From Nitrospirota bacterium (GTDB lineage: Bacteria; Nitrospirota; UBA9217), in the NCBI GenBank assembly GCA_035498715.1, contig DATJZV010000090.1, positions 3,173 to 67,172 of the forward strand: a stretch of 64,000 nucleotides of DNA, read 5' to 3'. The translations under genes and the position numbers were made by a program. Below, piece after piece: positions 11,118 through 30,783 of this stretch. Under the pieces are notes generated by a model. It had not been told where the DNA came from. It saw nothing but the letters and a program-made list of their open reading frames with translations, and ran no database searches. How positions within the stretch are numbered: the stretch's first letter is position 1; each line of letters opens with the position of its first letter.

Positions 11118-11429
11118 TTATCCTCCTACCTTTTCTATGACTCTTTTGACCATTTCATCATATTTCGCATTTGCCCACCAGATGTATATTCCGGTGAATA
11201 CCCATGACAGCACGATGGTCCCGACCGCGATTGGTATCCCAATCGTCGCCGCGCCGTTTTCACTCATCTTCTGCGAGATAAAGTCCTTGCCTTCCGCGAC
11301 GAGGTAGATGAACCCGAAATAGAGCACCAGCTCCAGAATCGTCAAAATAATCGAGATGGTGTTCTTCTGGCCGGTCAGCTTGATAAAATCCGGGTCATTC
11401 AAGATGTCTTCCTTTTTTAACTTACTCAT
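11118..11429 (-). CDS. DUF485 (YjcH-like) small inner-membrane protein
   Basis: 103 aa with two TM helices. It shows the conserved pairing directly upstream of actP. Confidence 0.8.
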
Positions 11430-11459
11430 GATCCATCCTCCTTTGTTTTGGGTTTGATT

Positions 11460-12173
11460 CTAAAAGTTGCCGAACTCTCCCGATAATCTGAAGCGATCAC
11501 CCCCTTTAAACGGTATTCCTATCTTGAGCAGATCCCCGATTTCCATCGTTCCCGCTTCGATAATCAGCGGGAGAAACCTCTGGAACAACTGGGCCGTGGT
11601 AAAAGCATCCATGAGCGCGTTATGCGCGCCGTTGACCGGGATGCCGAAACATTTTACGATATCATAAAGTCGGTAACCCATAAGCGGTGTGGTAAAGCAG
11701 TCGCGGCATTTCTGCCGTGCCCGAAGCCATTCGTACATGCTGAAAGTGTCGAGCGCGGAAGCCTTGATTTCCTGTCCATAAATCCTCTTCATCTCGCGGT
11801 TGATGAAGCCGAGGTCGATCGATATGAAATGACCGACAAGAACATCATTCCCGCAAAAATTGAGGAACTCTTTGAGGACCTCGTCAATAGCCGGTTTCTC
11901 GACGACTTCCGAAGGCATGATCTCGTGGATAACCACGCTCTGTGCCGAGAGCCGCGTTTTCGGGCTTGCGAGTTGGTAGAACGTTTCGCCCAGGTCGATC
12001 TTTCCGCCGTGCATGCGCACTGCGCCGACGGATATGATAGAATCTTTTTTTTCGTCGAGGCCGGTGAGTTCCGTGTCCAACACGACGTATGGGACATCCG
12101 TTATCGACGTCTTCGGGTCGATTCCGGGCGGCAGTTTGCGGATTCTCCTGAGCAGTCCGAACATCATCCTCAC
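11460..12173 (-). CDS. DEDDh 3'-5' exonuclease (DNA polymerase III epsilon-like domain protein)
   Basis: 237 aa. ExoI is VVLDTELTGL, ExoII is LVGHFISIDLGFI, and ExoIII is GAHNALMDA. It overlaps the upstream gene by 4 nt (ATGA). Confidence 0.85.
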   Translation of the reverse strand: MRMMFGLLRRIRKLPPGIDPKTSITDVPYVVLDTELTGLDEKKDSIISVGAVRMHGGKIDLGETFYQLASPKTRLSAQSVVIHEIMPSEVVEKPAIDEVLKEFLNFCGNDVLVGHFISIDLGFINREMKRIYGQEIKASALDTFSMYEWLRARQKCRDCFTTPLMGYRLYDIVKCFGIPVNGAHNALMDAFTTAQLFQRFLPLIIEAGTMEIGDLLKIGIPFKGGDRFRLSGEFGNF

Positions 12174-14107
12174 CAGATCAGCGATTTGTACCGCTCAATG
12201 ATCAAATCCTGGACCTTCGAAACCAGCTGAAACGCTTCCTTGATCGACCGCTTCTCGAGATGGCTCAACCGGTTCGGGTTGATAAAGTTGTCTGGCGTCT
12301 GGCCTGAGCTGATCTGCGCGTACTGGTGATGGATCCGCAGGAGCGTAATGAACTCGAAGGCCTGCTCGAAGTCATCTCCGTATTCCGTCACGATCGTATT
12401 TTTGTCGCGTAGCGTCTCTATCCGCTCGAGGGTCGAGGTCTCGCGGATCCCCTTCTCCAGCGCGAAAAGGCGCATGATATCTACGAGCGGCGCGATACCC
12501 TTGACCTTGAGGTTGAGTTCGTCCTTGTGCTCCCCGCTTTTTTCGACCACGAAGGACTTGAAAAAACCGATTGGCGGCGTGTTCCTGATCGCCATGTTCG
12601 CGAGGTAACCGAGAAACACCTTCTCGCCCTTGACGATCTCAAGCAGATGGTCTCGCAGCATGTCCGCGAGCCCGGAATCACCGCACATGGGCCTGAAATC
12701 GAAGAAAGTCACGGAGTTCATGACCGCGTCCGCGGTCGGCGTATTCACCCAGGAGGAGAAGTATTTCTTCCACGCCTTGAGCGGCTGGCACCACGTAGGG
12801 TTGCTCGCCATGTAATTTGCAGGGCATATCGGGAACCCGCACCGGATGAGGTCGTCCCGCACGTACTCGGCGAATATCTGAAAGTATTTTTTCGCCGCGT
12901 CTGCCTCCGCGTCCGTAGCCGGATCGGCATAGATAAGGGCGTTATCCTGGTCCGTCTTAAAGGTCTGCTCCTTGCGGCCTTCGCTTCCGAACACGATCCA
13001 GCAGTATGGCACCGGCGGCCGGCCGAACTTCCGCTCGGCGAATTCCATGATCTTCCGCACCAGCCGATCATTTACCTCGGTGATGACCTTGGTGATGTTG
13101 CTTGCTTTGGCTCCCTCCTTGAGGAGGAGCCCGACAATTCCGTTGATCTTTTTCGAGACGGGGACCAGCCCCTCGATCGTCTGCTGGCTTTCGATGTCCT
13201 TGGTGAGCGAAAGCGGCGACGTGCCCTGTAGCATCATGAGATCGTGGTTCGTGATAACGCCCGTAAGCTTGCCGTCCTTGATCACGAGGACATGGTGAAT
13301 GTTGTATTTGAGCATCCTGAGCACAGCTTCAAAGCAGTAGTCGCGGGCATCTACCCGTATGAGAGACGTGGTCATGATGTCCTTGACCGATTCCTGCACG
13401 TCCCTCCCCTTCGCGACCACTTTTTCACGCAAGTCCCGGTCCGTTACAATACCCGCCGGAAGGTTGTTCCTATTCATGATGATGAGCGAGCTGATCCGGT
13501 TCTCGGACATGATCTGCGCCGCCTCGCGAATCGTCGTCTCCTCCTGGACGGAGACGACCTCTTTGATGGCCATATCCTCCACGCGCGTCGTGAACAGGAG
13601 GCGGTCGCTCCCCCCGTAGAACATGCTCTTGTCCTGCATCTCGCGGTAGGTCCGGTCGATGTACTTGGTGATGTGCGACTTCAGGAAGTATTCGGTGAAA
13701 GAAAGGTTCGAGTCGAGGAGCTTAAGAAGCATCTCCTTCCCGAGGAGATAGCAGAGCGTGTCATCGACAGCCGTGATGTTCGACCGCACGCGGTCTTTGC
13801 CTACGATCGACAGGAAACCGAAGGTATCGCCTTCGCCGCGGTAGTCAATCACCACCTCGCCGCCGTCTTCGGATACCATCGAGACCTTCACCCCGCCCTT
13901 TTTGATGATCCTAAGGGCATCACTCGGGGGACCGTCCTGTTCCAGGATGACCATGTCCTTAGGATAGAATTCCATGGACAGATTCCTGGCAATGGCCTGC
14001 AAGTCATCATCTTCGAGGAACTGGAACGGGGGGACCTTTTTCAAAAAGGCCACTACGTCCTCGAGAATCATATTGCTTGCGCTGCCGGGCTTTATCGCAG
14101 ACATCAT
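12170..14107 (-). CDS. cNMP-binding + CBS pair + DUF294 nucleotidyltransferase + DUF294_C signal-transduction protein
   Basis: 645 aa. The cNMP-binding beta-barrel reads FYPKDMVILEQDGPPSDALRIIKKGGVKV...GEGDTFG. Two CBS repeats follow, then the NTase motif WIVFGSEGRKEQTFKTDQDNALIY and a helical C-terminal domain. Confidence 0.85.
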   Translation of the reverse strand: MMSAIKPGSASNMILEDVVAFLKKVPPFQFLEDDDLQAIARNLSMEFYPKDMVILEQDGPPSDALRIIKKGGVKVSMVSEDGGEVVIDYRGEGDTFGFLSIVGKDRVRSNITAVDDTLCYLLGKEMLLKLLDSNLSFTEYFLKSHITKYIDRTYREMQDKSMFYGGSDRLLFTTRVEDMAIKEVVSVQEETTIREAAQIMSENRISSLIIMNRNNLPAGIVTDRDLREKVVAKGRDVQESVKDIMTTSLIRVDARDYCFEAVLRMLKYNIHHVLVIKDGKLTGVITNHDLMMLQGTSPLSLTKDIESQQTIEGLVPVSKKINGIVGLLLKEGAKASNITKVITEVNDRLVRKIMEFAERKFGRPPVPYCWIVFGSEGRKEQTFKTDQDNALIYADPATDAEADAAKKYFQIFAEYVRDDLIRCGFPICPANYMASNPTWCQPLKAWKKYFSSWVNTPTADAVMNSVTFFDFRPMCGDSGLADMLRDHLLEIVKGEKVFLGYLANMAIRNTPPIGFFKSFVVEKSGEHKDELNLKVKGIAPLVDIMRLFALEKGIRETSTLERIETLRDKNTIVTEYGDDFEQAFEFITLLRIHHQYAQISSGQTPDNFINPNRLSHLEKRSIKEAFQLVSKVQDLIIERYKSLIW

Positions 14108-16569: not shown

Positions 16570-17574
16570 CTAAAACTGCTGGCTGCCAATTTCTTGGTAA
16601 ATAAAGTGGGAAATCTCCGCGATGGTATTATCCAGATACTCAGGTACAGTACCTGAGGTCATCACACACAAAAGATAGGGATGATCGGGGAAATAAACGA
16701 TTCCGCAATCATGCAATTGTTTTATCTCATTGATCTTCCGCAAACCAAACTTGTGCGCGACTGTGATATTGGGAGGCACTCCAGCAACCAAACCTTTTTT
16801 GTAATCAGTTTTGACCAGATATTCTAAGGCCTTTTCGGACATTTCTCTACTTAGATATGAAGCATTATAAAGAATGCGGAAAAAAGATGAGTATAATCCT
16901 ACTGAGAGCATATAACCACTTTGGTCGTTTAGATAATAAGGGTCTGGAATACCCAAGTCATCATACGTTTTTCTGAGGTCTTTATTACTAATTGCTCCTT
17001 CAAGAAGTATAGAGGAAACATTATCAGAATAATCAATCGTTCTTTTCAGTAAGTCTTCAACTGTATAGGACCTGCCGAACAATAATTTATCAGCTACATC
17101 AGTATTTTGGTACGATTTAAGGTCAGGATTGTTATAGGCGACTTTCTGAGTCAGTAATTGGGGATACGTTTCTGCCTTTTTCAAGACAGAGATCATAAGC
17201 GGCACTTTCAGTAAGCTTGCCGGATAGAATTGCGAGTCTTTCCCTATGTCGAAAGTAAGTCCATCGTTTAGTTCACGAAAATATACCGAGACCTCGTCGC
17301 CCCATCTCCGGCTTAGGTTTTCTCTTATAAACTTTTCAAGATCATCTCTCATCGGTTTGAGCTCGGGATCCGACAGCACATGTTGGGCTTGCTCGCATTC
17401 CAACAAAGGATTTGTATAAGTCCAACCTCCCTGTCGTATCTCGATAAGTTGATGTTTTGATTTTTCCGGGATAAACCCTCTAAGCATAAACCCGACGGAT
17501 AACCCGGCAATAAGGGCCAGCGCCGGTATTAGAAATTTACGGAATGGACTTTTCGACTCAAGATTATTATTCAT
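16570..17574 (-). CDS. Membrane-anchored class A beta-lactamase-fold serine hydrolase, paralog 2 (AT-rich gene)
   Basis: ORF 16570..17685. The start at MNNNLESK (17574) is preferred because it sits just before the TM helix FLIPALALIAGLSVGFML. The motifs are SxxK = ASLLK and SDN = YSDNVS, with KFG in place of KTG. The start is uncertain. Confidence 0.65.
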   Translation of the reverse strand: MNNNLESKSPFRKFLIPALALIAGLSVGFMLRGFIPEKSKHQLIEIRQGGWTYTNPLLECEQAQHVLSDPELKPMRDDLEKFIRENLSRRWGDEVSVYFRELNDGLTFDIGKDSQFYPASLLKVPLMISVLKKAETYPQLLTQKVAYNNPDLKSYQNTDVADKLLFGRSYTVEDLLKRTIDYSDNVSSILLEGAISNKDLRKTYDDLGIPDPYYLNDQSGYMLSVGLYSSFFRILYNASYLSREMSEKALEYLVKTDYKKGLVAGVPPNITVAHKFGLRKINEIKQLHDCGIVYFPDHPYLLCVMTSGTVPEYLDNTIAEISHFIYQEIGSQQF

Positions 17575-17778
17575 AACATTATAAAGACTGCCGATCAACT
17601 TTCTGCATGCCATTAGGAGGAGTTTGGCCGGCCGGGAAATAAAACTTATGCTGTATTTCAAACATGTCCCAAACCATAATGTCACACTCGTTCATCCAGG
17701 CAAGGCTGATCTTCTCCGATTCTCCACTTTTTGAAAATCGCTTCTCGGTGCATTGGATAACGTTCTTCTTTCCGGCAT

Positions 17779-18834
17779 CTACCCTGGTAACCGTGTTTGC
17801 CGGTCTATTTCTTCATAAATGAGCATAGTGACATCACGAATTACGTTCGTTAACTTCCCAGAATCTTCCCCGCGGGCCATGACCCCCATGAGATACGGGC
17901 GGCCTGGGTAGTAAATGATCCCGAACTCATGGAGCTGTTTCATTTCCTTTTCGATGCCGCGGTCCGCATCGGCCTGCATCGACCTCTCTCCGGACTTGAT
18001 CGCACAGTCTACATTCGGTGGGATGCCTGCGACGATCCCGTCCCTGAAGGCAGACCGGGAAAGATAGCGGAGGGCCTTCTCGGACATCTCATTGCTCAAA
18101 TAGGAAGAGTTGTAAAGCACGCGAAAGAACGATGCATAGGCGCTGAACGTCACAGCATCGTCCTTCTTCGCCGGGTCATAGTTGGCATAGATGTCCTTAA
18201 AGACCCGGTCAAGGTAGCCAGGCGGGAGATTGGCCAATAGCAGTGCATGCGCATCGGTATCGTCGTATGCGATCATCCTGAGGATTAGATCGTCAACCGT
18301 ATAGGATCTGCCTTTCTCGAGAGGCCTAGCTGCTTTTGTGCTTTGCAGACTGCTTTCTTCCGTGCTGCCGGCAAAGGGTATTTTGCGGTTCAGAACGCGG
18401 GGGTATGACTCTGCCCATTTGAAGTAGGCGACCATGAGAGGCAGTTTCAAAAGGCTTTCGGGCGAGAACGGTTCCTGCTCCCGGATGCCGAACCGGTGCC
18501 CGCTTTTTAGATCCTGGAAAAAAACGGATACCGTTGATACCTCGCCCGTTTTCATTTTGCTCTGAATAAGCGCATCTACCTTATAGCGGAAAGGCTTCAG
18601 TTCGCTTTGTGTACGCGCTCTATCGGGCATCATGTTTCCGCGCGGGGGTCGTATGAACCTGAATGCGCCTCCCGTGTCAGCCGAACGTTCTTCGCTACTG
18701 TCCTCGTATATGCTGCCTAGCATCCCCGTTCCTCTGCCGATGAACGCCCCGAAGGAAAATGCCGCAAGCAGGAGGACCAGCAGAAAAGACCTTTTGATAG
18801 TTATACTTTTCTTATCGGTGTCTTTCTCAGACAT
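17779..18834 (-). CDS. Membrane-anchored class A beta-lactamase-fold protein, paralog 1 (degenerate SDN loop)
   Basis: ORF 17779..18870. The start at MSEKDTDKK (18834) has GGAGAGGG upstream. The TM helix is FLLVLLLAAFSFGAFI. The motifs are SxxK = ESLLK, YDDTDA in place of YSDN, and KSG present. Confidence 0.65.
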   Translation of the reverse strand: MSEKDTDKKSITIKRSFLLVLLLAAFSFGAFIGRGTGMLGSIYEDSSEERSADTGGAFRFIRPPRGNMMPDRARTQSELKPFRYKVDALIQSKMKTGEVSTVSVFFQDLKSGHRFGIREQEPFSPESLLKLPLMVAYFKWAESYPRVLNRKIPFAGSTEESSLQSTKAARPLEKGRSYTVDDLILRMIAYDDTDAHALLLANLPPGYLDRVFKDIYANYDPAKKDDAVTFSAYASFFRVLYNSSYLSNEMSEKALRYLSRSAFRDGIVAGIPPNVDCAIKSGERSMQADADRGIEKEMKQLHEFGIIYYPGRPYLMGVMARGEDSGKLTNVIRDVTMLIYEEIDRQTRLPG

Positions 18835-18873
18835 CGTCGTCCCTCTCCAGTGCAATAGACCGTGCTTCAACTT

Positions 18874-21459
18874 CTAGAACGTATACACTCCCGCTAAAAA
18901 ATTCTTCGCGTACCGATCAATGGCGGCATCATCGTGCAGCACGGCATCCAGCTGCCGGGCATAGGAGATCAGCCTCCCCGTCTTGTCGAGTACCGTCTCC
19001 ATCTCTTCCTGTTTGAGGCCCGCGAGGCGGGCAATGAGAAGGTCTCCCTTAATCTTGATGTTGAAGCCATATTCTCGTAAAATCTTCGCGATGAGTTCCA
19101 CCCTTCTTGAACGCTTTGCCATGTCCGTTGCGCCGCCCACGAAACGGAAGTAGATGTGGTTGTTCTTCGCATTCTCGCCGCAATAGCAGTCGATCATGTT
19201 GAAATGATACCCAAACCTGATGCTCAGGTTCACATATTCGCGGGATATAACCGCCACATTATATCCGGCGGGGTGCCCGCTGTCGGAGACGATGTCCGGC
19301 ATCCGCATCATGCTCGAAAGAAAATCATGGGCTTTCAAAGCGACCGGCTCGGAGTGCCAGGCGCCAGGATGAATCATGCCCCTGATGATAGCCCGGAACG
19401 GCACCGACGTAACCTGCTCAAACGTTGCCCGTCCGCCAACCCCGCTATTCAGGCCGCCTCCCATGTCCATGACCAGGATCCCCGCGGGCACGGGAAGTTC
19501 CAGCGGCACGAGCGCACCTTGTTTCCTGAACTTTGCGTTCCCCTCCCGCGCGCTGTCCACGAGCTCGGCAACCGATTTTTCATGCATGAACCGCAAGATA
19601 TCGTGCAGCGTCCTGCATCCTTCGGGCGTAAACTCGTCCATCAGCGGGTCAACAAGGTTGAGGAGGGAGATGTACCGCAGGATATACCGCTTCCTTCGAT
19701 ATTCATAAACATCCTCCATCCTCGCGGTCTCGTCACCGGCCTGTGAGATAATATCCCTGACTATCCCTTCATAGACGGCCGATGTGCCGTCGTCTCCGGC
19801 GACCAGGGTGACGTCCTGTCCCGGCTCCAGGATTTCCATGACACCAGCGACATTCACGATTGCCGGGATTTTCAATTCCCTGCAGAGCGCTGCCATATGG
19901 CTAGTCTGCGTTCCAGTTTCGGTAATGATCGCGGAAACGAACGGCATGACCCGGACGTACAGCGATGAATCGTGTTTCGCCACCAGCACGGCTCCCTTCG
20001 GGACATCGCTCAGATCGTCCTTTTTCCGTGTGATAAAGACCTTTCCTGCTCCTGTTCCTTTCTGGATCACACTGCCCCTGTTCCGGATTAAGACCAGATG
20101 CGCCGATTCGGGACCCGGGATCTGGCGCTCCGCGGAAACATCGCTTGAATTCTTGACAGCAATGTTCAACGGGCGCGCTTGGAGAATAAAAATCCTGCCG
20201 TCCTTGTCGATCGCCCATTCGACGTCGCGGGGGCTCCCGAAGTACTTTTCGATCTTCGCCGCCAAAGAGGCGAGTTCCGCTGCCTGCTCAGAAGTCAGAC
20301 ACGGTTTTCCCCGGAGAACATCCGGCGTTGCGACCTCGGTTACGCCTCCCTGGCTCTGGCCGGTGATCATGGACGACTTATTGCCGATCGCCGCGCCAAG
20401 CATTTCATGAGGTTGACCCTTCCTAACCGTATAGAGGTCCGTATCGGTCAGCCCCTCGACCACGGCCTCTCCCAGTCCCCATGCGGCGCTGATGACGAGG
20501 GTATCCCCCTTGCCGTCGGGCGCGGTAGTATACATGACACCGCTCGACACCGCATCCACCATGACCATGCACCCCACGGCCATCTTCAAGCGACCCGGTT
20601 CGTAGCCCATCTGCTGTTGATAGGCCACGGCCTTTTCCGAAAATAGGCTCGCGATCACCTCCCGATATGCCTGTTCAACACGCCCCGTCTCGGGGGGGAC
20701 GTTCAGGATGCTTTGAAACTGTCCTGCGAATGACCGGCCGCTGTCCTCCTCCTCTGCGCTGCTCCGTACGGCGAGAAAACATTCCCCGTTGCGACTCTGG
20801 ATTTTCTGTATCGCTTCTTGCATTGCCCCGTTGAGGGAAGAAGGAATGGTCCCGTGAATAATGAGTTCCTGCAGTTCCCGGAGCCCCGCGTCAGACGGAT
20901 GGGGATCCTCTGCGATCCGTGCCACCTGACCGCCGAGCCCGTTGGAGCTTATGAATTCGTCAAAAGCCGCGGTCGTGATGACGAAGGCGTCAGGAACGCG
21001 CAGGTTCAGGCGGTTCTTGACCTCCGAGAGATGGGCGTTCTTGCCACCGACTTCCCGCAGCGTGCCCCAGGGAATGTCCTCAAAGAACAGGACCGGCTTC
21101 TGCGGCACCGACGGCGCGCCGGAGATCATCTGCTGGATCAGAGAGTCAATTCGTCCGAACACATCGTGGAGAGGCAAATACCGGTTCCTCGTGAGCGTGT
21201 CGAAATTCCGCATGGAATACTCGAGATCTTTCCGGAGGCGGGAATAGGCCTTCTTGATATAATTTACATCGAACAGGTAGTCCCCACCCAGTTTCTCTCC
21301 CATGTCCGTAATCGTTTCGAGCGCCCGGTTATTGCTATCGAGTACTTTCTTAAACCGGTCGAAAACAGCCTTGAATTCCTCAGGGTCCGCGGGATATTTC
21401 CTGAAGGACGCATTGGCTACCGACGCGAGGAGTGATCTTAATAAACCACCGCTTTTCAT
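18874..21459 (-). CDS. PEP-utiliser-like phosphotransferase: PPDK_N ATP-grasp + phosphohistidine swivel domain + unassigned C-terminal domain
   Basis: ORF 18874..21546, with the start at M30 (21459) preferred. The ATP-grasp region reads REVGGKNAHLSEV...VRSSAEEEDSGRSFAGQFQSILNV. The swivel His context reads ETGTQTSHMAALCRELKIPAIVNV. No PEP/pyruvate TIM-barrel domain follows. Confidence 0.7.
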   Translation of the reverse strand: MKSGGLLRSLLASVANASFRKYPADPEEFKAVFDRFKKVLDSNNRALETITDMGEKLGGDYLFDVNYIKKAYSRLRKDLEYSMRNFDTLTRNRYLPLHDVFGRIDSLIQQMISGAPSVPQKPVLFFEDIPWGTLREVGGKNAHLSEVKNRLNLRVPDAFVITTAAFDEFISSNGLGGQVARIAEDPHPSDAGLRELQELIIHGTIPSSLNGAMQEAIQKIQSRNGECFLAVRSSAEEEDSGRSFAGQFQSILNVPPETGRVEQAYREVIASLFSEKAVAYQQQMGYEPGRLKMAVGCMVMVDAVSSGVMYTTAPDGKGDTLVISAAWGLGEAVVEGLTDTDLYTVRKGQPHEMLGAAIGNKSSMITGQSQGGVTEVATPDVLRGKPCLTSEQAAELASLAAKIEKYFGSPRDVEWAIDKDGRIFILQARPLNIAVKNSSDVSAERQIPGPESAHLVLIRNRGSVIQKGTGAGKVFITRKKDDLSDVPKGAVLVAKHDSSLYVRVMPFVSAIITETGTQTSHMAALCRELKIPAIVNVAGVMEILEPGQDVTLVAGDDGTSAVYEGIVRDIISQAGDETARMEDVYEYRRKRYILRYISLLNLVDPLMDEFTPEGCRTLHDILRFMHEKSVAELVDSAREGNAKFRKQGALVPLELPVPAGILVMDMGGGLNSGVGGRATFEQVTSVPFRAIIRGMIHPGAWHSEPVALKAHDFLSSMMRMPDIVSDSGHPAGYNVAVISREYVNLSIRFGYHFNMIDCYCGENAKNNHIYFRFVGGATDMAKRSRRVELIAKILREYGFNIKIKGDLLIARLAGLKQEEMETVLDKTGRLISYARQLDAVLHDDAAIDRYAKNFLAGVYTF

Positions 21460-21571
21460 GTTCTGCTCCCACCCATCATTGCAATCGAGACACACTGTGC
21501 CGCTGAGGCATTCTGTATACATCTGTACCGTACCGCTCAGCACCAATGTATCGCCGTGCGTATGCTGGGTA

Positions 21572-21940
21572 CTAAGGCCTGTTCAATGCACGCCGTATCG
21601 ATTCCTTGAGCTCCTTGATCTTTACGGGCTTGGGGAAGAAGTCGTGCACGTCTCCCCGCAGCGCTTCGATGGCCGCATCGAGGTTGGCGAAGGCCGTGAT
21701 CATGATGACCTTGGTCTCGGGATACAGCTTTTTCACCGTTCTAAGGACTTCCATCCCGTCGATGCCCTTCATCTTGTAGTCCGTAACAACGACGTGAAAT
21801 TTATCCTCTTTCAGCCGTGCCAGTGCCGGCTCGGCATTTAAAAATGTCTCGACCTGATAGCCCTCCTGCTCGAGCGAAAGCTTTGCCATGTCGCCCACGA
21901 TCTTTTCGTCGTCAATGACCATGATCTTGTGACTATTCAT
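21572..21940 (-). CDS. Stand-alone response-regulator receiver (CheY-like)
   Basis: 122 aa. The acidic pocket is DDE, the phospho-acceptor context is VVTDYKMKGIDG, and KP is conserved (FFPKPVK). It overlaps the upstream kinase gene by 4 nt. Confidence 0.9.
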   Translation of the reverse strand: MNSHKIMVIDDEKIVGDMAKLSLEQEGYQVETFLNAEPALARLKEDKFHVVVTDYKMKGIDGMEVLRTVKKLYPETKVIMITAFANLDAAIEALRGDVHDFFPKPVKIKELKESIRRALNRP

Positions 21941-23346
21941 CGATTTTTCTCCTCTTTTTTATACAGTGGCAGTTCTAAGGTGAAGGTCGTCCCGACTCCC
22001 ACCTTGCTATCCACTCTGATATCCCCTCTATGGTTCTTGATGATTCCGTAACTGACCGAGAGCCCGAGGCCGGTTCCCGCGTCGCCCTTGGTGCTGAAAA
22101 AGGGATCGAAGATATGCGGCAGGAACTCAGGCGGGATGCCTTTTCCAGTGTCCGCCACACCGATCTCCACAGAATTCCCGCTCTTTCCCAGCCTCGATGA
22201 AATGACGAGCCTGCCACCCGAGGACATGGCCTGGACCGCGTTGGTGATGAGGTTCACCAGGACCTGCTGTATTTGATGCTCATCGACATATACATGCGGC
22301 AGTGCATGGTCGAGATGAAGCGTCGTTTCGATATTCGACACATCGATCATGTTCTGCACAAGCGTAAGCGTCTTCTGTATCACGGAGTTGATGTCCGCCT
22401 CGTTCGGGTTCGAATCCTTTGGCTTGGAAAAATCGAGGAGGTTCTTAACGATCTTTCGTATCCGCTCCGTCTCCTCCTCCACCTTGCTCATGAGCTCGAC
22501 CCGGTCCCTACCGCTGAGCTTGTCGTATAGTTCCGCATAGGTCTGGGCGATCATGGAAATGTTATTCAGGGGATTCGTGAGCTCATGCGCCACCCCCGCC
22601 GTGAGAATACCCATGGAAGCAAGTTTCTTGGACTGGATGAGCTCCTCTTCGCGGTGGCCAAGTTCCTCGGACATGGAGTTGATGGCCGCAATGACGGAGC
22701 CAAGCTCATCATTGGATTGGAACACTTCTATCTTTTGGAAATTGCCTCCGGAGATGGATTTCGCCAGTTTCTCGATTTCCCGCAACGACCGGAGAATCTT
22801 CTGAGAAATAAAGTGTCCCAAGAAAAGGGCGGAAAACAGAATGGCCCAGAAGGAAAACATCAGTATCCGCTTGGAGCTCAGGATAATATCATTCACCCGC
22901 CTTCTTTCAAGGTGCGTGATGGAATCGGAAAATTCCTTCAGCTTTTTGCCCTCGGCCCTGAGCCGCAACTCGAGATGCTGGTCCATGGAGCTGCCTGTCC
23001 GCGCTTCTTCGATGACATCCGAATAAGCTTTGAGGTACGAGTCAAGCTTCTTGAGATCGGTCTCACCGATGGCCCTGATAATGTCATCCCGCACCTCTCC
23101 GATTGTCCTGACGGTATAATCTATTTTTCCCCGTATCTCGGCAAGCGCTTTCTTATCCTTGTAGAGAAAATAGTTCTTTTCCGAAAGCCTCATTTCGAGA
23201 AAGGACGCATTCAGATCATCGGCGATTTCCACGAATCTGAGCTTAGTAAGGACAAGATTCATATTCTGAAAGGCAAAAAAACCGATCAGAATAATGAATG
23301 CGCCGTACATGACGTTGGAGAGGATGAGCTTTTTTTCGATCTTCAT
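21937..23346 (-). CDS. Sensor histidine kinase (helical periplasmic sensor, HAMP, HisKA, HATPase_c)
   Basis: 469 aa. The H-box is AGVAHELTNPLN. N, G1 and G2 boxes are present (NLITNAVQA, DTGKGI, GTGLGLS). The sensor domain shares the motif R-x-SEKNYFLY with the kinase at 38070..39644. Confidence 0.9.
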   Translation of the reverse strand: MKIEKKLILSNVMYGAFIILIGFFAFQNMNLVLTKLRFVEIADDLNASFLEMRLSEKNYFLYKDKKALAEIRGKIDYTVRTIGEVRDDIIRAIGETDLKKLDSYLKAYSDVIEEARTGSSMDQHLELRLRAEGKKLKEFSDSITHLERRRVNDIILSSKRILMFSFWAILFSALFLGHFISQKILRSLREIEKLAKSISGGNFQKIEVFQSNDELGSVIAAINSMSEELGHREEELIQSKKLASMGILTAGVAHELTNPLNNISMIAQTYAELYDKLSGRDRVELMSKVEEETERIRKIVKNLLDFSKPKDSNPNEADINSVIQKTLTLVQNMIDVSNIETTLHLDHALPHVYVDEHQIQQVLVNLITNAVQAMSSGGRLVISSRLGKSGNSVEIGVADTGKGIPPEFLPHIFDPFFSTKGDAGTGLGLSVSYGIIKNHRGDIRVDSKVGVGTTFTLELPLYKKEEKNR

Positions 23347-23553: not shown

Positions 23554-24795
23554 TCACTCCGGATAGGCTATGCCCCTCGGAACTTCTGCCTGTTCCTTGC
23601 GGACAGGCCAGTACCAGAGCATCCCGTCCACGAGCATCAGAAGTGCCGCGGCAATGAGCAACATATTAAACGATGTGAGCAGACCGAACCCGAAATAGCT
23701 CAAAATACCGATGCCGATGCCGAGGAAAGAAATGCCTGTCCGGATGAATGCAAGCCCGGTCCTCGCCCGCGCATAGATGGTGCGATAGCAGGCAGCAATC
23801 GTCCGCTGGGCCGCCAGAACGTTCCGCTCCCGAGCGAACATGGTGCGCGTTTTGCTTGACGGCGTCGGATTAAGATAGGTACTGTGATCGGCAAGATAAT
23901 CTCCCATTCGTGCAAGCATCGTTCCCTGCGTTGCCTTCCTTGCTCCCGTATTCTCGATAAAATGGTAATCCTCGAGGAACTGGATCGTAGCTGCCGTGAC
24001 TTCGACCAGCGTCTGGTTCCCGGGAGGTGTGAGCCGAGATTTCCGGATGCTCAAATACTGGGGAAGGCCGTAACATGCGATGATGATACCAACAATGAGT
24101 ACCGAAAAATAGAGATAGGGGTTGCTGCTCGTGTTCCTCGACTGCAGCAAGGCGTTCGAGAGCGCTATTGTACCCATCCCCCACCGGATGAAAGAAAGAC
24201 CGGTCCTTGCCTTCGCAAGATCGGTCCGGTAGCAGGCCATTCTCGTGCGCCAGTGCGCCATCGTGTTTCTCCAGAACGCAAGTCCGGTCCGCTCCGTGCC
24301 GATCAAGAGCCCAACCTTTGCATGGAGAAAATCCTGGATGTACCATTGAATGTCCGAATCAAGAGAGACGCGGAATTCATACCGGTCTGCCTTGATGTGT
24401 TTTTTCACGTCCTCCCGCATGGCCTCGCTTTCCGGGTTTCTCGCCGCAATGACTACGGTGCCCGACTTGTCCTTCATGACCGGCATCCACTGGTACGTCG
24501 AGAGCGAGTCTGCGTTCAGGTTGATCAGAAGCTCCGGTGGGATCGGCAGGCGTTCGTCGTATTCGATCGCGCGACAATTATAGTACTTCGCAAGCGCCGC
24601 AAGCATGTCCTGCTTGGTTATTTTGTACTCGCTCAGAAGGACCTTTTCGATATCGATGCCCCTTGCTTGGGCCCTGCTTGCCGCTACTTCGAGATCGGCA
24701 GTGCCCAGAATCCTCCGTTCTACCAGAAGGGAGAACTCCAAGCCAGCCCCGACTGCATTATCGGCGAAATCGTCGTTCATCAGCTCATTTTTCAT
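23554..24795 (-). CDS. T2SSE_N (GspE/MshE N-terminal-like) domain fused to two DUF202-like membrane modules
   Basis: ORF 23554..24825 with a TTG start. ATG 24795 or 24780 is plausible, so the start is uncertain. The N-terminal 150 aa follow the GspE_N pattern. Two modules follow, each built from RTxxAxx heptads plus two TM helices. Confidence 0.65.
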   Translation of the reverse strand: MKNELMNDDFADNAVGAGLEFSLLVERRILGTADLEVAASRAQARGIDIEKVLLSEYKITKQDMLAALAKYYNCRAIEYDERLPIPPELLINLNADSLSTYQWMPVMKDKSGTVVIAARNPESEAMREDVKKHIKADRYEFRVSLDSDIQWYIQDFLHAKVGLLIGTERTGLAFWRNTMAHWRTRMACYRTDLAKARTGLSFIRWGMGTIALSNALLQSRNTSSNPYLYFSVLIVGIIIACYGLPQYLSIRKSRLTPPGNQTLVEVTAATIQFLEDYHFIENTGARKATQGTMLARMGDYLADHSTYLNPTPSSKTRTMFARERNVLAAQRTIAACYRTIYARARTGLAFIRTGISFLGIGIGILSYFGFGLLTSFNMLLIAAALLMLVDGMLWYWPVRKEQAEVPRGIAYPE

Positions 24796-26437
24796 GGTTA
24801 TTAAAAAATACCGTTCCCCATTCAAAATTTGGTCTTCCGTAATCAGGAATAGTTATCTCCATGTCCCCGTAGCAGTACGGGTACTCCTTCCTCATGCGTT
24901 CGGCGGGAAGCATCCAGCGGTATCCGTCCACGATCAGTGCAAGCCCACTTACAATCAGCAAGGCGTTGAAGATCGTCCAGCCAGGCGAGGCGATACCGAA
25001 ATAAGCCATCAATCCCGCGCCAACAGACGTAATGCTCATGCCTGTCCTGATGTACGCCATGCCCGTCCGCGACACCGCCATGACCGTTCGGAGCCGTGCC
25101 ATGACGACGCGACGGTCGGCAAGCACCGTCCGTTCCAGAGCGTGGCCTGTCGTGGCCCAGATGCCCGGCATCTGGTCCGCGGTAACCGGCGGACCCGGCC
25201 TGTCCTTTCCTGGTCCCGATCGTTTGTGGCCAAGCGGAAATACCATGTCCCAGATCGTTTCCTTGTTAAGCCCCGCCAGCACGGACCGCAACCCTTCGAT
25301 TCCGGACTTGCGCCCGCCGAAATACCAGTAAAAGCCCTCGGCGGACATGAGAATGCCCGCGGCAATCAGTGTGACATCGAAGATCGACCACGCCGACCAC
25401 CTGCTCGCTTCAAACTGCCTCATCAAACCTATGCCGAGTCCGGTAAAGGCAATGCCGGTCCTGGTAAAGGAGAGCCCCGTCCGCGCTCGGGCGAGCTTTG
25501 TCCGGTGGCCGGCAAGCGACGTCCGCTCCTCTGCCATGTCAGTCCGGTCGCTGGCCAGGAACCTTCGCCGCATTACGGGCGAGAGATTCTCCCAATCGGC
25601 TCTGTGCTCTCCCGCGCCCTTTATTTCTTCGGTCCGGGTGATGACAGGACGGCCGTCCCTCACATCTCCCTGAAGGACACAGGTTCCCCAGGTCGGCAAC
25701 GTGCAGCTAGTGTCAAGCGGTTTGCCTGCGATCTTCCGAGCGGGCAAATACCATTTTATCCCGTCATAAACCATGATGACACCGACGGTCAATAGCGGCG
25801 CTTCAAGGACCAGGTAAAAACCGGCCCCCAGGACACGCAAAAACAGAAGGGCGATGACGATAAAGGAAACGCCGGTCCGGATGAAGGCGAGACCCGTCCG
25901 CCCTTTCGCGAAGAGCGTACGGTAATGCGCATAGGTCGATCGCTGGTAGGCGAGGAACGTCCTCACGCGGGCGAGCGGCGTCCGGCCCCCGGAGATGCGG
26001 AAATTGCGGTTCACGTCGAAATTATGTTCAATGATGCGGATGAGGTCGGCCGGAAGCGACACGCGGAAATCGATATGCTCAACGCCTAGCGTTTTTTTAA
26101 TGTCTTCGATTACACGCTCGTCGTCGGGGCGGAAGGCAATGACCTCAGCCTGTTTCTCGCGCACGGAGAGCGGAAACCACAAGGCACTCTTCTGGTGCTC
26201 CAAGTCGAGCCGCAGGACCAGAAAGTAGGACGCGGCCACGCTCTCATCGAATTCAACGAACGGATAGCCGAAATATTCCGAAAGGCAGAAGAGGACCTCG
26301 TGTTTCGGGATCCCTTGCCGGATCATCAGCTCCTCGACCGCCGTCCCCGTGGCTATCGATTCCCGCTCCATCGAGTCCAGCTCTACCTCGGAGAGGACCC
26401 CCAGACGGAGCAGTCTATTGAATTTATCTCTGATCAT
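24785..26437 (-). CDS. T2SSE_N (GspE/MshE N-terminal-like) domain fused to three DUF202-like membrane modules
   Basis: 550 aa. The N-terminal region reads LRLGVLSEVELDSMERESIATGTAVEELMIRQGIPKHEVLFCLSEYFGYPFVEF. Three modules lie at about residues 152-235, 296-375 and 434-512. Confidence 0.7.
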   Translation of the reverse strand: MIRDKFNRLLRLGVLSEVELDSMERESIATGTAVEELMIRQGIPKHEVLFCLSEYFGYPFVEFDESVAASYFLVLRLDLEHQKSALWFPLSVREKQAEVIAFRPDDERVIEDIKKTLGVEHIDFRVSLPADLIRIIEHNFDVNRNFRISGGRTPLARVRTFLAYQRSTYAHYRTLFAKGRTGLAFIRTGVSFIVIALLFLRVLGAGFYLVLEAPLLTVGVIMVYDGIKWYLPARKIAGKPLDTSCTLPTWGTCVLQGDVRDGRPVITRTEEIKGAGEHRADWENLSPVMRRRFLASDRTDMAEERTSLAGHRTKLARARTGLSFTRTGIAFTGLGIGLMRQFEASRWSAWSIFDVTLIAAGILMSAEGFYWYFGGRKSGIEGLRSVLAGLNKETIWDMVFPLGHKRSGPGKDRPGPPVTADQMPGIWATTGHALERTVLADRRVVMARLRTVMAVSRTGMAYIRTGMSITSVGAGLMAYFGIASPGWTIFNALLIVSGLALIVDGYRWMLPAERMRKEYPYCYGDMEITIPDYGRPNFEWGTVFFNNHEK

Positions 26438-26465: not shown

Positions 26466-26493
26466 ATAATACGGGAAAGAAATGTTTTTGTAA
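26466..26493 (-). promoter_or_regulatory. Candidate sigma-70 promoter (TTACAA-N16-TATTAT) for the T2SSE_N/DUF202 gene pair
   Basis: The minus strand reads TTACAAaaacatttctttcccgTATTAT, about 30 nt upstream of ATG 26437. Confidence 0.3.
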
Positions 26494-26685
26494 AGAATTC
26501 TGTCAGGCGTGTCAAGAAAAAAGGTGGATGCTGTTCGCGAGGTTAATTTCCGACGTGTGGCAGGTTGCCTGTCTGAAGCCATATTCAGTCGAGAGCAAAC
26601 GGCTTGGCTCCCGTAATCATTCGATGGTCCATGAAGACGTTATTTCTTTATCCGCTACTTCTCCGAACCGTTCCGCCCGTACGGC

Positions 26686-26874
26686 TTACGCTTTCTTTTC
26701 TTCTTTCTTTTCTATTGATGGGGCGTCCGGCCCCTCTTTCATCGCCTTCTTGAATGCCTTGATGCTCTTGCCGAGGCCCTCACCCAGCTCCGGGAGCTTC
26801 CCCGGGCCGAAGATGGTCAACACAATCAACAGGATCAGTATCAGATGCATTGGCTGTACCAAACCTTCGAACAT
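26686..26874 (-). CDS. tatA: Twin-arginine translocase subunit TatA/E
   Basis: ORF 26686..26916. The start at MFEGLVQPMH (26874) has AAGGAG upstream. The motif LTIFGPGKLPELGEGLGKSIKAFKKAM is canonical TatA. Confidence 0.9.
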   Translation of the reverse strand: MFEGLVQPMHLILILLIVLTIFGPGKLPELGEGLGKSIKAFKKAMKEGPDAPSIEKKEEKKA

Positions 26875-27020: not shown

Positions 27021-27443
27021 TTATAATCCGACAACATACACCGGGCACGGCGCACGGTCGATGACCTTCTCTACGATGTGATCACCAAAGAGCCGGCTAA
27101 TGATACTTTTTTTCTTTTTCGACCCCATGATGATAAGATCGCATTTTTCTTCTGCGGCGACTTCCACGATCCTGTCCGGCACGTCACCGGCCTCCAACCG
27201 CGTTTTTACCATTGCTCCCTCGGCCTCAGCAACCTCATTGATAACGGAAACTGCCTTGGCCGCCCCGTCGTCCAGGACATCGTGAAGGTTCTTGATGCCC
27301 GTCAGGTTGAGTTCGCCATCAAAAGGCCGGACAACTTTCACGACCGTGATCCAGGTCTTTTCGTCCTTGGCGAGTTTGATCCCCTGTTCCAGGACCTCTT
27401 TGGACCCGTTCAACGCGATAAGAACTTTTCTATAACCCTTCAT
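27021..27443 (-). CDS. Universal stress protein (single Usp domain)
   Basis: 140 aa. It starts KVLIALNGS... and ends DLIIMGSKKKKSIISRLFGDHIVEKVIDRAPCPVYVV. Confidence 0.85.
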   Translation of the reverse strand: MKGYRKVLIALNGSKEVLEQGIKLAKDEKTWITVVKVVRPFDGELNLTGIKNLHDVLDDGAAKAVSVINEVAEAEGAMVKTRLEAGDVPDRIVEVAAEEKCDLIIMGSKKKKSIISRLFGDHIVEKVIDRAPCPVYVVGL

Positions 27444-27545
27444 AATATATCACGCTCCCTTGCTTGCTATAGTGTTTACTTTGAATTCTGTTTTCATCAA
27501 CCTGACATCTCCACGTCATCTGCATTCCATTCGTTCTCAGGTCAT

Positions 27546-28409
27546 TTACCTCGCAATCAGTATTGGACAGGAGGCATATGCAATAATACGCTCCGCCGTG
27601 CTCCCGATGATAGCCTTGTTTACGCCCCTCCATCCGTGGGTTCCCATGACGATCAGATCATGTTTCAGCGTGTCTGCGATCTCCACGATCTTGTCACCGG
27701 CATGACCCTCCTGCACGACCGCCTTGATCTCTACTCCCAGCCCTGCGGCGTGCTTCTTTGCTCCCTCGACGATCTTCTCCGCCTCTCGAAAGAGGCTCTT
27801 CTTAATGGTCTCTGTCTTGAAGAAGTCCATCATCTCTTCGTAGCGGGGTATAACGTAAAGGACCGCTACCTCTGCTCCGTCAATTTTCGACAGTTCGCTG
27901 GCCCGCGTCAGCGCCTTTTTGCTGGCCTCGGAGCCGTCGAAGGGGACCAGCAAGGAATGATAACTTCCGCTGCACTTCGAACACGGTTTCTTGACCACAA
28001 GCACATCGCAGGGTGAGTTCAGGATGACCTGCGACGTTACGCTACCCATAAGCAGCCGCTTCAGTCCCTTTCGTCCATAGGTGCCGAGAGCAATGAGGTC
28101 GGCTTTCTTCCCTTGTGCAATGTCCACGATCACGTCGGGCGGCTCGCCTTCGCATATAATAGACTCGATGCTCCCGTTCAGTCCGTAATCATGATGGAGA
28201 CTCTTCTTCGCGTCCATGCAGACCTTCGTCCCTATTTCGAACCGCTTCTCCATCTGCGACGGCAGAATAGTGAACTCCTCTTGGTCAAAATAGACCGCAT
28301 GGACCAGGAAGAGATGCCCCCCGTGTTTTTTTATCCAGAGCGAAGTTTCTTGCAGTGCCGCCCTGCTCGACAATGACTCATCGTATCCGACAACAATAGT
28401 GCTGTACAT
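27546..28409 (-). CDS. Tandem universal stress protein (two Usp domains)
   Basis: 287 aa with two repeats. Each ends in a G-x2-G-x9-G(S/T) ATP-binding-like motif (LGTYGRKGLKRLLMGSVTSQV and MGTHGWRGVNKAIIGSTAERI). Confidence 0.85.
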   Translation of the reverse strand: MYSTIVVGYDESLSSRAALQETSLWIKKHGGHLFLVHAVYFDQEEFTILPSQMEKRFEIGTKVCMDAKKSLHHDYGLNGSIESIICEGEPPDVIVDIAQGKKADLIALGTYGRKGLKRLLMGSVTSQVILNSPCDVLVVKKPCSKCSGSYHSLLVPFDGSEASKKALTRASELSKIDGAEVAVLYVIPRYEEMMDFFKTETIKKSLFREAEKIVEGAKKHAAGLGVEIKAVVQEGHAGDKIVEIADTLKHDLIVMGTHGWRGVNKAIIGSTAERIIAYASCPILIAR

Positions 28410-29212
28410 TAATGAGAACCTCCGCCTTTCCTAAACACCAAGCCGACACCGAAACCCGCGCCGAGCGCGATACCGATCGAGAGAATACCGTAGAACGCCG
28501 CGTTGTTCTTTGCCATGGTCGCAAGCGTTTTGACGAGGCCGGCCTGTTCAACATTTACCTTCGCTTCGGCCTGCTCAACGACTTTTCCATTCTTCACGGC
28601 ATAGACCGACACTAGGTAATCTCCCGGTGCTGCCTGGTAGGGCCAGTCGGTCAGAATGTAATACTCCTGCCTACCGTCGGCCTTCGCCGTTGTCGATATC
28701 TTCCCGAAGGAGGATACATATACGTTGGACGCTTCCTTATACTTAACGAACTCATTGAACCACTTGGCCTTCTCCTCCTCATTTGCGGCCGGCGTTACCG
28801 TGACATGTTTTTCGAGCGATGGATATCCGATCACATACTTTTCCATCTCTTCCGTGCTGAGCATCTCATCGAGTTTCTTCGTGCTATAGACTGCGTAGAA
28901 ATTCGGGGTATGTTCGAATTTGAGCTGCCCCACATTCATCCACAAAAGGCCGCCGACCTTCCCCTTCTGTTTTAGGACCTGATGCTCTTCGGGAGCGGTT
29001 ATCTTGATGACCAGATCAACGTTGGGATCCGACTCCCCACGAACGCTCACCGTGCTGCCGTGATAGAAGAAGTCGATGGTGATATGGTCATGGTTCGCCT
29101 TGGCCGTCAGCATGGCGGAAGCATTGCCAGTGAAGACAAGGATGAAAATGAGGGCCAACGCGGCTATCATCGCGCTTCCCCGATCGGCAATTCGCAACCC
29201 GATTTTTTTCAT
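28409..29212 (-). CDS. TIGR02186 / Alph_Pro_TM-type membrane protein (function unknown)
   Basis: 267 aa with an N-terminal signal or anchor, a large beta-rich periplasmic part and a C-terminal TM helix (FYGILSIGIALGAGFGVGLVF). It shares start/stop overlaps with both neighbouring genes. The family call is from memory of the usual TauE pairing. Confidence 0.5.
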   Translation of the reverse strand: MKKIGLRIADRGSAMIAALALIFILVFTGNASAMLTAKANHDHITIDFFYHGSTVSVRGESDPNVDLVIKITAPEEHQVLKQKGKVGGLLWMNVGQLKFEHTPNFYAVYSTKKLDEMLSTEEMEKYVIGYPSLEKHVTVTPAANEEEKAKWFNEFVKYKEASNVYVSSFGKISTTAKADGRQEYYILTDWPYQAAPGDYLVSVYAVKNGKVVEQAEAKVNVEQAGLVKTLATMAKNNAAFYGILSIGIALGAGFGVGLVFRKGGGSH

Positions 29213-30138
29213 TAGTGTCCTCCTGCCTGTGAGATGAGTAATGACGGCGTAAGCGTCAGTTCGAAGATGATCTTTACAGTGACCGCGAGCACGATCCCGG
29301 CGAGCAATATTTTAAGCTGATCGGCCTTGAGCTTCCTTCCGAATACCGCGCCTACCTGCGCCCCGATCGTTGAGCCCAGGAGCAGCAGCACTGCAAGGAT
29401 GAAATCTACACTATGGTTCGTGTATGCCTGGAGAAACGTGACCTCGATGCAGGTAAACAGGATCTGGAACAGACTCGTCCCGACGACCACGTGCATCGGC
29501 ATCCTGAGCATATACACCATGATCGGAACCATCAGAAACCCGCCGCCCACGCCCATGATGGCGGCAAGAACACCGACAAAGGCACCGAGGACTATCGGCA
29601 CAAAGACGGAATGGGTTATCCCTGATTTCTCGAACCGGGTCTGGAGCGGAAGGGATTTCAGGAAACGCCCGACGGCCGATTCCTTCTCTTCGCCCGCCTC
29701 TTCATCAATGGACGTCTTCTTTTTCTTCATGCTCTGGAGGCTTTCGATGAACATATAGACGCCCACGATGCCGAGCATGAGCACATAGGTCATCTTGATC
29801 ACGAAATCTGCGTTGCCCATGGCATGGAGGAGTTTGATCGCCTGGACACCTATGATTCCTCCAACAAACCCACCGGCGAGGAGGTATAGGCCCATCTTGA
29901 AATCCACATTCCCGACCTTCCAGTGAGCATAGGTCCCGGAAGTGGATGCCGCTACGATCTGGTTGGAATCCGTTGCCGCGGCAACGGTCGACGGAATGCC
30001 GAACATGATCAGAAGCGGCGTCATGAGAAAGCCTCCGCCCACGCCGAAGAGGCCTGAGAGCAGCCCCACGGCCAGTCCTAGCCCGACGGGCACGAGGATA
30101 TTAATGCTGGTCAATGCTACCGGTAAGTACAGATACAT
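29212..30138 (-). CDS. TauE/SafE (TSUP, DUF81) family anion exporter
   Basis: 308 aa. It contains two 4-TM repeats with GVGGGFLMTPL and GVGGGFLMVPI motifs, separated by a charged loop. Confidence 0.85.
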   Translation of the reverse strand: MYLYLPVALTSINILVPVGLGLAVGLLSGLFGVGGGFLMTPLLIMFGIPSTVAAATDSNQIVAASTSGTYAHWKVGNVDFKMGLYLLAGGFVGGIIGVQAIKLLHAMGNADFVIKMTYVLMLGIVGVYMFIESLQSMKKKKTSIDEEAGEEKESAVGRFLKSLPLQTRFEKSGITHSVFVPIVLGAFVGVLAAIMGVGGGFLMVPIMVYMLRMPMHVVVGTSLFQILFTCIEVTFLQAYTNHSVDFILAVLLLLGSTIGAQVGAVFGRKLKADQLKILLAGIVLAVTVKIIFELTLTPSLLISQAGGH

Positions 30139-30285
30139 TACTCATCTCCTTTTCTTATTTTTTTTAATTTCTTAGATGACATTGCGAGGGGACACAGTCC
30201 CCGAAGCAATCTGGATATTCTTCAACACGATACACGCGACCTGGGATTGCTCCACTTTCGGCTTGCAATGACAGGCTGAGCGTGT

Positions 30286-30783
30286 TTACGCTACTGTGCA
30301 GGCCTGCCTGGTCATGGTCACGATGGGACGCGACGCCGTACGTACAAGTCGGTTCAAATCCTTTGCCGAGACATTGCCGTTCCCTGTCACCGCGGGGCTC
30401 AAAACGACCTTGTCGATGCCTGTGTGTCCCTTGAGAAATGTCCGTATGCCTGAAATTGCGTCCAAGTCCGTCGTGTAGACATTCACCTGGATGCCTTCCC
30501 GGTGACATTTTTTCACAACTTCCACGATCTTCTTCTCATGTCTCGTATGCTTATCTTGAGAGCCACCTTCCATGATCTGCCGAGCTGTATCATGTTCATC
30601 GACCTCGGCAAAGCTTACAGCGGTCATGAGGTTCTCAAGCTTTTCCATGAGGTTATTTTTTTTCTTGACCAGCAAAAGCGTGATGTCCTCATACATTGTC
30701 TTAGCGAGTTCAACAGCGTATGAAACTCCTTCTTCGATATTTTCATCAAGATATGTGACGAACAAAAGCTGCCTCTTCCCCAT
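30286..30783 (-). CDS. Usp-like / adenine-nucleotide alpha-hydrolase-like protein (divergent)
   Basis: 165 aa. An alpha/beta pattern resembling a Usp fold is seen (LLFVTYLDEN...VVLSPAVTG), but no clear ATP motif. AAGGAGG lies 6 nt upstream. Confidence 0.45.
   Translation of the reverse strand: MGKRQLLFVTYLDENIEEGVSYAVELAKTMYEDITLLLVKKKNNLMEKLENLMTAVSFAEVDEHDTARQIMEGGSQDKHTRHEKKIVEVVKKCHREGIQVNVYTTDLDAISGIRTFLKGHTGIDKVVLSPAVTGNGNVSAKDLNRLVRTASRPIVTMTRQACTVA

Follow-up and report, generated by a model that had tools for sequence, protein, structure and literature searches.

As far as we know, and in the literature searched, the only known role of DUF202 domains is in the eukaryotic VTC complex, and no function has been assigned to YidH and other bacterial members. 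In yeast, the subunits of this complex (Vtc1, Vtc2 or Vtc3, and Vtc4; PDB 7YTJ, 8I6V) carry the DUF202 annotation, and its membrane part is made of five DUF202 domains in a 3:1:1 ratio (three Vtc1, one Vtc3, one Vtc4) that form a polyphosphate channel (PMC9911596). Each subunit has three transmembrane (TM) helices, the five TM1 helices line the pore, and so do Vtc1 residues K24 and R31, which lie seven residues apart, with R31 and its equivalents forming the constriction (PMC9911596). Here we describe two adjacent genes, A and B, in a 64,000-nucleotide stretch of DNA (hereafter the window) from a Nitrospirota bacterium (GenBank assembly GCA_035498715.1, contig DATJZV010000090.1, positions 3,173 to 67,172). 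Their products together carry five arginine-rich DUF202 hairpins, three in A and two in B, and as this count equals that of the subunits of the yeast polyphosphate channel, the two proteins may together make a bacterial channel that carries a negatively charged polymer.

Both open reading frames (ORFs) exist on the minus strand and, as the first-pass annotation of this DNA had proposed, are tandem paralogues (32% identity over 395 aa, E 1e-42). The ORF of B is open from a TTG at 24825; family alignments point to the ATG at 24795 (MKNEL...), which is most likely the true start. With this start, B overlaps the stop codon of A by 11 nt, which implies translational coupling. A scan for promoters and terminators returned no more sites than expected from shuffled sequence, with one promoter-like site lying 5' of A. 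The features of the two genes are as follows.

Gene A, 24785..26437, minus strand: 550 aa, a GSPII/MshEN-fold N-terminal domain, three arginine-heptad DUF202 hairpins and a short C-terminal beta element (ORF; Pfam MshEN and three DUF202 stretches; AlphaFold2 (AF2) model, pLDDT 79.3, pTM 0.68; >990 homologues)
A N-domain, 26003..26437, minus strand: aa 1-145 (Pfam PF05157; Foldseek matches 5htl at TM 0.73, 8pdk, 9g1w, 2d28, 7lko)
A module 1, 25727..25984, minus strand: aa 152-237, Arg 152, 159, 166, 173, 180 and 187, then hairpin
A module 2, 25268..25567, minus strand: aa 291-390, Arg 291, 298, 305, 312, 319 and 326, then hairpin
A module 3, 24884..25153, minus strand: aa 429-518, T429, Arg 436, 443, 450, 457 and 464, then hairpin (best Pfam DUF202 stretch 450-507)
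Gene B, 23554..24795, minus strand: 413 aa from the ATG, a GSPII/MshEN-fold N-terminal domain and two arginine-heptad DUF202 hairpins (ORF; Pfam; AF2 model, pLDDT 71.7, pTM 0.48; paralogue of A)
B N-domain, 24325..24795, minus strand: aa 1-157 (Pfam PF05157; Foldseek)
B module 1, 24040..24291, minus strand: aa 169-252, Arg 169, 176, 183, 190, 197 and 204
B module 2, 23584..23847, minus strand: aa 317-404, Arg 317, 324, 331, 338, 345 and 352
A/B overlap, 24785..24795, minus strand: 11 nt shared by the A stop codon and the B start codon (ATGAAAAATGA)
Promoter-like site TTTACA-17-TATTAT, 26466..26494, minus strand: just upstream of A, a consensus match only

The domain content suggested earlier is borne out by profile searches. 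Pfam recognizes MshEN (T2SSE_N, PF05157) in A (E 4.3e-7, 30.3 bits) and in B (E 1.6e-11, 44.5 bits), in both cases above the gathering threshold of 23.1, and DUF202 (PF02656) in three stretches of A (E 1.2e-17, 64.6 bits) and two of B (E 2.1e-7, 31.7 bits; threshold 23.4), which gives the predicted total of five modules. Pfam and NCBIfam scans found no ATPase domain in either protein, and the match to TIGR02538 spans only the N-terminal 138 of its 564 profile positions.

The modules share an arginine register. All five align without gaps over six consecutive heptads, not the four to five counted in the first-pass annotation. Arginine occupies the first heptad position in 29 of 30 cases, T429 of A module 3 being the sole exception, and all 29 of these arginines are invariant in the 102 aligned sequences (69 A-family, 33 B-family), which are homologues 59–97% identical to the window proteins. 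Position 2 is Thr in 24 of the 30 heptads, position 4 hydrophobic in 28, and position 5 Ala in 24 and Ser in five; no residue dominates at positions 3, 6 and 7. The 210 residues of the heptad regions contain 37 Arg and 3 Lys against 8 Asp/Glu, and with that many arginines held in a strict seven-residue register a chance origin is excluded. From helix geometry it follows that positions 1, 5, 2 and 4 share one face of an alpha-helix with the arginines at its centre, and such position-by-position conservation fits a helix that lines a pore or an interface.

In the AF2 models each module is a hairpin of one helix of 50–57 aa and a second of 27–42 aa. The modules had been described as heptads followed by two TM helices; the two membrane helices hold up, but the last one to two heptads sit inside the first of them, as seen in both the models and hydropathy, the latter placing just the second helix and the C-terminal stretch of the first within the membrane. 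By the same two measures there are thus two TM helices per module, as opposed to three in canonical DUF202, and because this number is even all five concatenated modules would keep one orientation in the membrane. The Pfam register places the canonical ERT at heptad 5 and the next RT at heptad 6 in every module, and heptads 1–3 are predicted to be an N-terminal extension into the cytoplasm. A terminal motif of the type D/E-G-x-x-W-Y-x-P-x-R-K, earlier assigned to every module, is found in four of the five, B module 1 ending instead in YGLPQYLSIRK. Individual modules also carry signatures of their own (RRR in A module 2, TTG in A module 3, RWG in B module 1), and these are kept from Nitrospirota to Acidithiobacillia.

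Relatives of the pair were found in 227 species by a profile scan of one genome per species, and locus counts given here refer to the best 80 of these. Almost all of the 80 are Nitrospirota, Thermodesulfovibrionales, Ca. Sulfobium or Dissulfurispiraceae, with a few metagenome-assembled genomes (MAGs) labelled Desulfocapsaceae or Deltaproteobacteria. A adjoins B at 78 of the 80 loci. The two remaining loci, L056 and L076, lie on contigs that break off within A, and their B match falls on A. Among 1.84 billion representative proteins there were 970 matches at E < 1e-3, and the long architectures among the best 150 of these were only A-type (approximately 490–570 aa) or B-type (approximately 400–410 aa); neither a single-chain five-module protein nor a split other than 3 + 2 occurred among those 150.

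The pair extends to a different phylum. Acidithiobacillus thiooxidans ATCC 19377 (locus L081; TQN52077.1 and the next gene) has an A-B pair with the 3 + 2 split, arginine counts of 6+6+5 and 6+6, the 11-nt overlap and the module signatures, while the other genes of the Nitrospirota cluster are absent and its neighbours unrelated. The Desulfocapsaceae-labelled loci likewise lack the Nitrospirota cluster genes. That the pair is kept without the cluster in these two settings makes A-B the minimal unit. Adjacency, overlap and this recurrence show A and B to be coupled, and the two proteins are expected to act together. The non-Nitrospirota carriers fall in sulfur-cycling lineages (Acidithiobacillus; three Desulfocapsaceae MAGs, L038, L042 and L069; and a protein of Desulfobulbus sp., P0408), that is, a sulfur oxidizer and relatives that disproportionate sulfur or reduce sulfate, a pattern that could reflect either function or sampling. 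One further locus, labelled Betaproteobacteria (L005, JBLMWN010000002.1), has a block of A, B and a universal stress protein (USP) gene 77–86% identical to that of the window and probably stems from a Nitrospirota contig that was misbinned or mislabelled.

Given these observations, we propose, tentatively and with somewhat less than even confidence, that the five hairpins of A and B together make up a VTC-like conduit for a polyanion, lined with arginine. Co-made from overlapping genes, the two proteins would assemble into one inner-membrane complex in which A supplies three and B two of five two-helix hairpins, packed as the five DUF202 subunits are in yeast VTC. The first helix of each hairpin, approximately 50 aa long, would run from the cytoplasm into the membrane with an arginine at every seventh residue and, beside it on the same face of the helix, Thr, Ala and a hydrophobic residue. 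Arranged round one axis, the five first helices would stack their arginines, 29 in total, into six rings reaching from the cytoplasm into the inner leaflet, which would give a polyanion a long and strongly positive path to move through or bind along, polyphosphate being the precedent.

How close is this design to that of the known DUF202 proteins? Yeast VTC and the A-B pair both comprise five DUF202 units, and the ERT arginine, which forms the constriction in VTC, is that of heptad 5 in A and B; the Pfam register, together with a sub-significant alignment, equates heptads 4 and 5 with Vtc1 K24 and R31. In VTC, however, the units are separate three-TM polypeptides fused to SPX and TTM domains and have two to four arginines per helix, whereas A and B concatenate two-helix hairpins in two chains, with six arginines per helix and with GSPII-fold N-domains in place of SPX and TTM. 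The YidH-type proteins belong to the same Pfam family and share ERTxLAWxRT at the start of the first TM helix, but are approximately 115–135 aa long, with one module, three TM helices and two to three heptads. One of these lies in the window itself (45456..45857, plus strand); it is, as previously noted, a canonical single-module DUF202 gene (E 1e-22), and has three hydrophobic segments.

Several results weigh against the five-hairpin conduit. The best PDB match of the single DUF202 protein of the window is indeed Vtc1, with R18 and R25 falling on K24 and R31, but the alignment is sub-significant (E 0.24–0.31). When both AF2 models were searched against the PDB with Foldseek, the significant matches were confined to the N-domains and VTC was not retrieved, and the module profile (A4) found nothing at E <= 10 among PDB sequences. 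The earlier link between these modules and VTC therefore stands at the level of the family, where both score or are annotated as DUF202, and VTC homology rests on that shared Pfam membership. Canonical DUF202 and VTC have a third TM helix that is missing from the A and B modules, and no polyphosphate enzyme or VTC domain (TTM/CYTH, PPK, SPX) was found in A, B or ten scanned neighbours. Evidence for the five-fold ring is indirect, the AF2 models being of A and B as monomers, and with no substrate bound the charge of six five-arginine rings would have to be balanced. In four Nitrospirota loci (L043, L049, L051 and L064, about 8240..12900), two tandem A-types (approximately 547 and 569 aa) precede B, so that the stoichiometry may not be fixed at 3 + 2. 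Finally, there are several lineages in which A-B is kept but the kinase, receiver and dikinase described below are not. For the membrane part, the Foldseek search gave non-significant matches only, to the TM domains of ABC exporters (E > 0.03) and to ExbB and PomA (E about 1.2). The 5:2 motor hinted at by the last two was rejected, the matches being non-significant and an arginine-filled core being unable to hold the TM helices of a partner.

In Nitrospirota the pair is embedded in a conserved set of genes. The counts below are tblastn detections in the 80 loci and include a few weak, non-syntenic matches; many of the absences are contig ends.

HAMP histidine kinase, 21937..23346, minus strand: downstream of B (Pfam), 64 of 80 loci
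Stand-alone receiver, 21572..21940, minus strand: downstream, 63 of 80 loci; 44% identical to the receiver domain of protein P0298
Dikinase resembling phosphoenolpyruvate (PEP) synthase, 18874..21546, minus strand: 890 aa, PPDK_N and swivel-His domains, downstream, 54 of 80 loci
Upstream block, 27021..30783, minus strand: five genes (Pfam), each in 46–52 of 80 loci
USP, 27021-27443, minus strand: upstream block
Tandem USP, 27546-28409, minus strand: upstream block
Alph_Pro_TM (TIGR02186), 28409-29212, minus strand: upstream block
TauE (TauE/SafE), 29212-30138, minus strand: upstream block
165-aa ORF without Pfam match, 30286-30783, minus strand: upstream block

A tatA/tatE gene of 62 aa (26686..26874, minus strand; TIGR01411, 68 bits, cutoff 53.9) is found in the 580-nt gap that separates the first USP gene from A, and a small gene of this kind is also found just upstream of A in approximately 17 of the closest related loci. 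Downstream of the dikinase, two tandem paralogues of the Beta-lactamase2 family (16570..17685 and 17779..18870, minus strand) occur in only four of the 80 loci; the 16–18 kb region has a GC content of 0.43, as against about 0.53.

The matches of the dikinase to PEP synthase, rifampicin phosphotransferase and PigC are confined to the ATP-grasp and swivel domains and fall below the family cutoffs. The C-terminal 300 aa have no match in Pfam or among PDB sequences, and the N-terminal 150–159 aa or so have no PDB match and only an insignificant one in Pfam (E 0.19). The protein may be a dikinase with an unidentified substrate.

A second group of heptad proteins leads to the same partners. Related single-hairpin proteins have from three to roughly 20 heptads. 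In a wider set (P0310, P0317, P0320, P0335, P0298 and P0303; L084, 8001..11688), roughly 10–20 RTxLAxx heptads precede a single DUF202 hairpin; in P0298 and P0303 the heptad-DUF202 module is fused to a receiver, and some members are encoded beside USPs and dikinases of the family seen in the window. The gene for P0298 is followed directly by a full-length homologue of the window dikinase (32% identity over 850 aa, E 1e-147), the alignment covering the unassigned N- and C-terminal regions of the latter, and its surroundings also hold a pair of USPs, a further lone receiver and a second dikinase of this kind. A receiver fusion adjoining a dikinase in a separate genome provides independent support for a functional connection between heptad-DUF202 modules, the receiver and this family of dikinases. 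These heptad-array proteins have in common with A and B the RTxLAxx heptad, the two-helix hairpin, a WY..P.RK-type end and the genomic partners (receiver, PPDK_N dikinase, USPs), but differ in having one hairpin per chain, up to roughly 20 heptads and no GSPII domain; they are equally uncharacterized. In Nitrospirota, the A-B complex would work in functional connection with its neighbours, the histidine kinase, the lone receiver and the PEP-synthase-like dikinase.

The first-pass annotation read the N-terminal domains as sensors of a nucleotide second messenger, which would make A-B a DUF202 channel gated by cyclic di-GMP (c-di-GMP) or another cyclic nucleotide, with MshEN-type receptors. The fold is not in dispute. 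Beyond the Pfam matches above threshold, residues 1–140 of both AF2 models match MshEN (5HTL, TM 0.73 for A and 0.67 for B), and the N-domain fold matches have TM 0.6–0.73 to 5HTL, 8PDK, 9G1W, 2D28 and 7LKO, with probability 1.0 for the first three. The matches include c-di-GMP-bound MshEN and PilF GSPII-B, but PilF GSPII-A, XpsE-N and the PilB-N/PilZ complex match equally well. PilF GSPII-A, which ranks beside the c-di-GMP-bound structures, reportedly does not bind c-di-GMP natively. Moreover, the motif of the binding site has been lost. In MshEN it is a tandem 24-residue motif, RLGxx(L/V/I)(L/V/I)xxG(L/V/I)(L/V/I)xxxxLxxxLxxQ, for which a relaxed pattern has also been defined (Wang et al. 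2016, PMC5013675). Neither the strict nor the relaxed pattern occurred in any of 120 A-family or 120 B-family N-termini, as searched with a regular-expression script run without a positive control. A residue-level HMMER alignment of A to PilF GSPII-B, used as a check, shows the scaffold hydrophobic residues and two turn glycines retained in A and RLG replaced by D-K-F and A-V-E; a conserved Phe stands at the third (Gly) position of RLG in the A and B families alike. The NCBIfam model c-di-GMP_motif (NF053729) scores 15.7 bits in B, against a cutoff of 38, and does not match A. Residues 1–40 are the least conserved stretch of A, and divergent A-types, including that of Acidithiobacillus, match the family profile only from position 42–81 on, with uncertain start codons, which suggests that they may lack most of the helical half that binds c-di-GMP in MshE. 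Together, the fold matches and the motif loss indicate a GSPII fold for which canonical c-di-GMP sensing is not supported, and we regard gating by a cyclic nucleotide as very improbable. If there is gating, it more likely proceeds via protein partners or two-component signalling, and the N-domains are probably cytoplasmic docking or regulatory modules, as GSPII domains are with GspL or PilZ. Fold and PF05157 are common to the N-domains of A, B, MshE, PilB, PilF, GspE/XpsE and NfrB, and NfrB likewise bears an MshEN-type domain on something other than a secretion ATPase; what sets A and B apart from these proteins is that they have no ATPase, no glycosyltransferase and no tandem 24-residue motif, and that some A-type relatives seem able to do without part of the domain. 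More generally, a Pfam 'MshEN' match alone does not make a c-di-GMP receptor, and the motif needs checking.

The 'channel or scaffold' reading put forward at first pass is plausible in both its halves, and a scaffold is the main rival to the five-hairpin conduit, though we think it somewhat unlikely. The Arg/Thr heptad helices would then be a cytoplasmic coiled-coil stalk or a membrane-surface element of a membrane-anchored signalling complex, which recruits or senses phosphorylated partners (receiver, dikinase, USPs) or anionic lipids, and the hairpins would only anchor it. The range of heptad number in the single-hairpin relatives is what one might expect of a stalk or spacer, GSPII domains are protein-docking modules, as in the PilB-N/PilZ complex and XpsE-N retrieved by Foldseek, and both the receiver fusion and the conserved linkage with kinase, receiver, dikinase and USPs speak for signalling. 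Yet the pair persists without signalling neighbours in Acidithiobacillus and in the Desulfocapsaceae-labelled loci, the canonical ERT arginine lines the pore in VTC, the only solved DUF202 assembly, and a 29/30 arginine ladder running into the first membrane helix, combined with a 3 + 2 split kept across phyla, exceeds the needs of an anchor or spacer. Alternatively, A and B may sit in separate homo-oligomers or in a larger mixture (e.g. A2B2, with ten hairpins), the sum of five being coincidental. The four loci encoding A, A' and B fit such an arrangement, as does the already compact AF2 model of the A monomer (pTM 0.68), and the single-hairpin heptad-DUF202 proteins must homo-oligomerize if they form pores at all. 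We nonetheless consider this unlikely, as the 3 + 2 split, the module signatures and the 11-nt overlap are all kept from Nitrospirota to Acidithiobacillia, and this favours a hetero-complex of fixed composition whose positions, like those in VTC, are not equivalent.

While the domains of A and B are known, their 3 + 2 paired architecture, six-ring arginine ladder, two-helix module and genomic partnership are new. Source databases name the proteins generically ('DUF202 domain-containing', 'YidH', 'type II secretion protein', 'GspE N-terminal domain-containing'), and a full-text literature search found nothing that combines MshEN with DUF202 or treats bacterial tandem DUF202 proteins, in line with the initial impression of an uncharacterized architecture; one apparent match concerned DUF2029, not DUF202.

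The pair offers several handles on bacterial DUF202 function: a fixed 3 + 2 arrangement resembling the pentamer of VTC, a ladder of 29 arginines open to mutation, and conserved partners in the receiver, dikinase and USPs. As Acidithiobacillus thiooxidans ATCC 19377 is a cultured host, the family is testable. In its most far-reaching form, which strikes us as rather improbable, A-B would be the VTC channel's counterpart in bacteria, a pseudo-pentameric translocon whose arginine ladder moves polyphosphate or some other linear polyanion; in Nitrospirota, a new PEP-synthase-like dikinase, itself under two-component control, would feed or control it. Such a system would provide the first function for a bacterial DUF202 protein and a route of polymer export unrelated to PPK. 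Should the pore model be true, it would show how bacteria can move a polyanion across the inner membrane, and the channel design of VTC would have a close bacterial counterpart.

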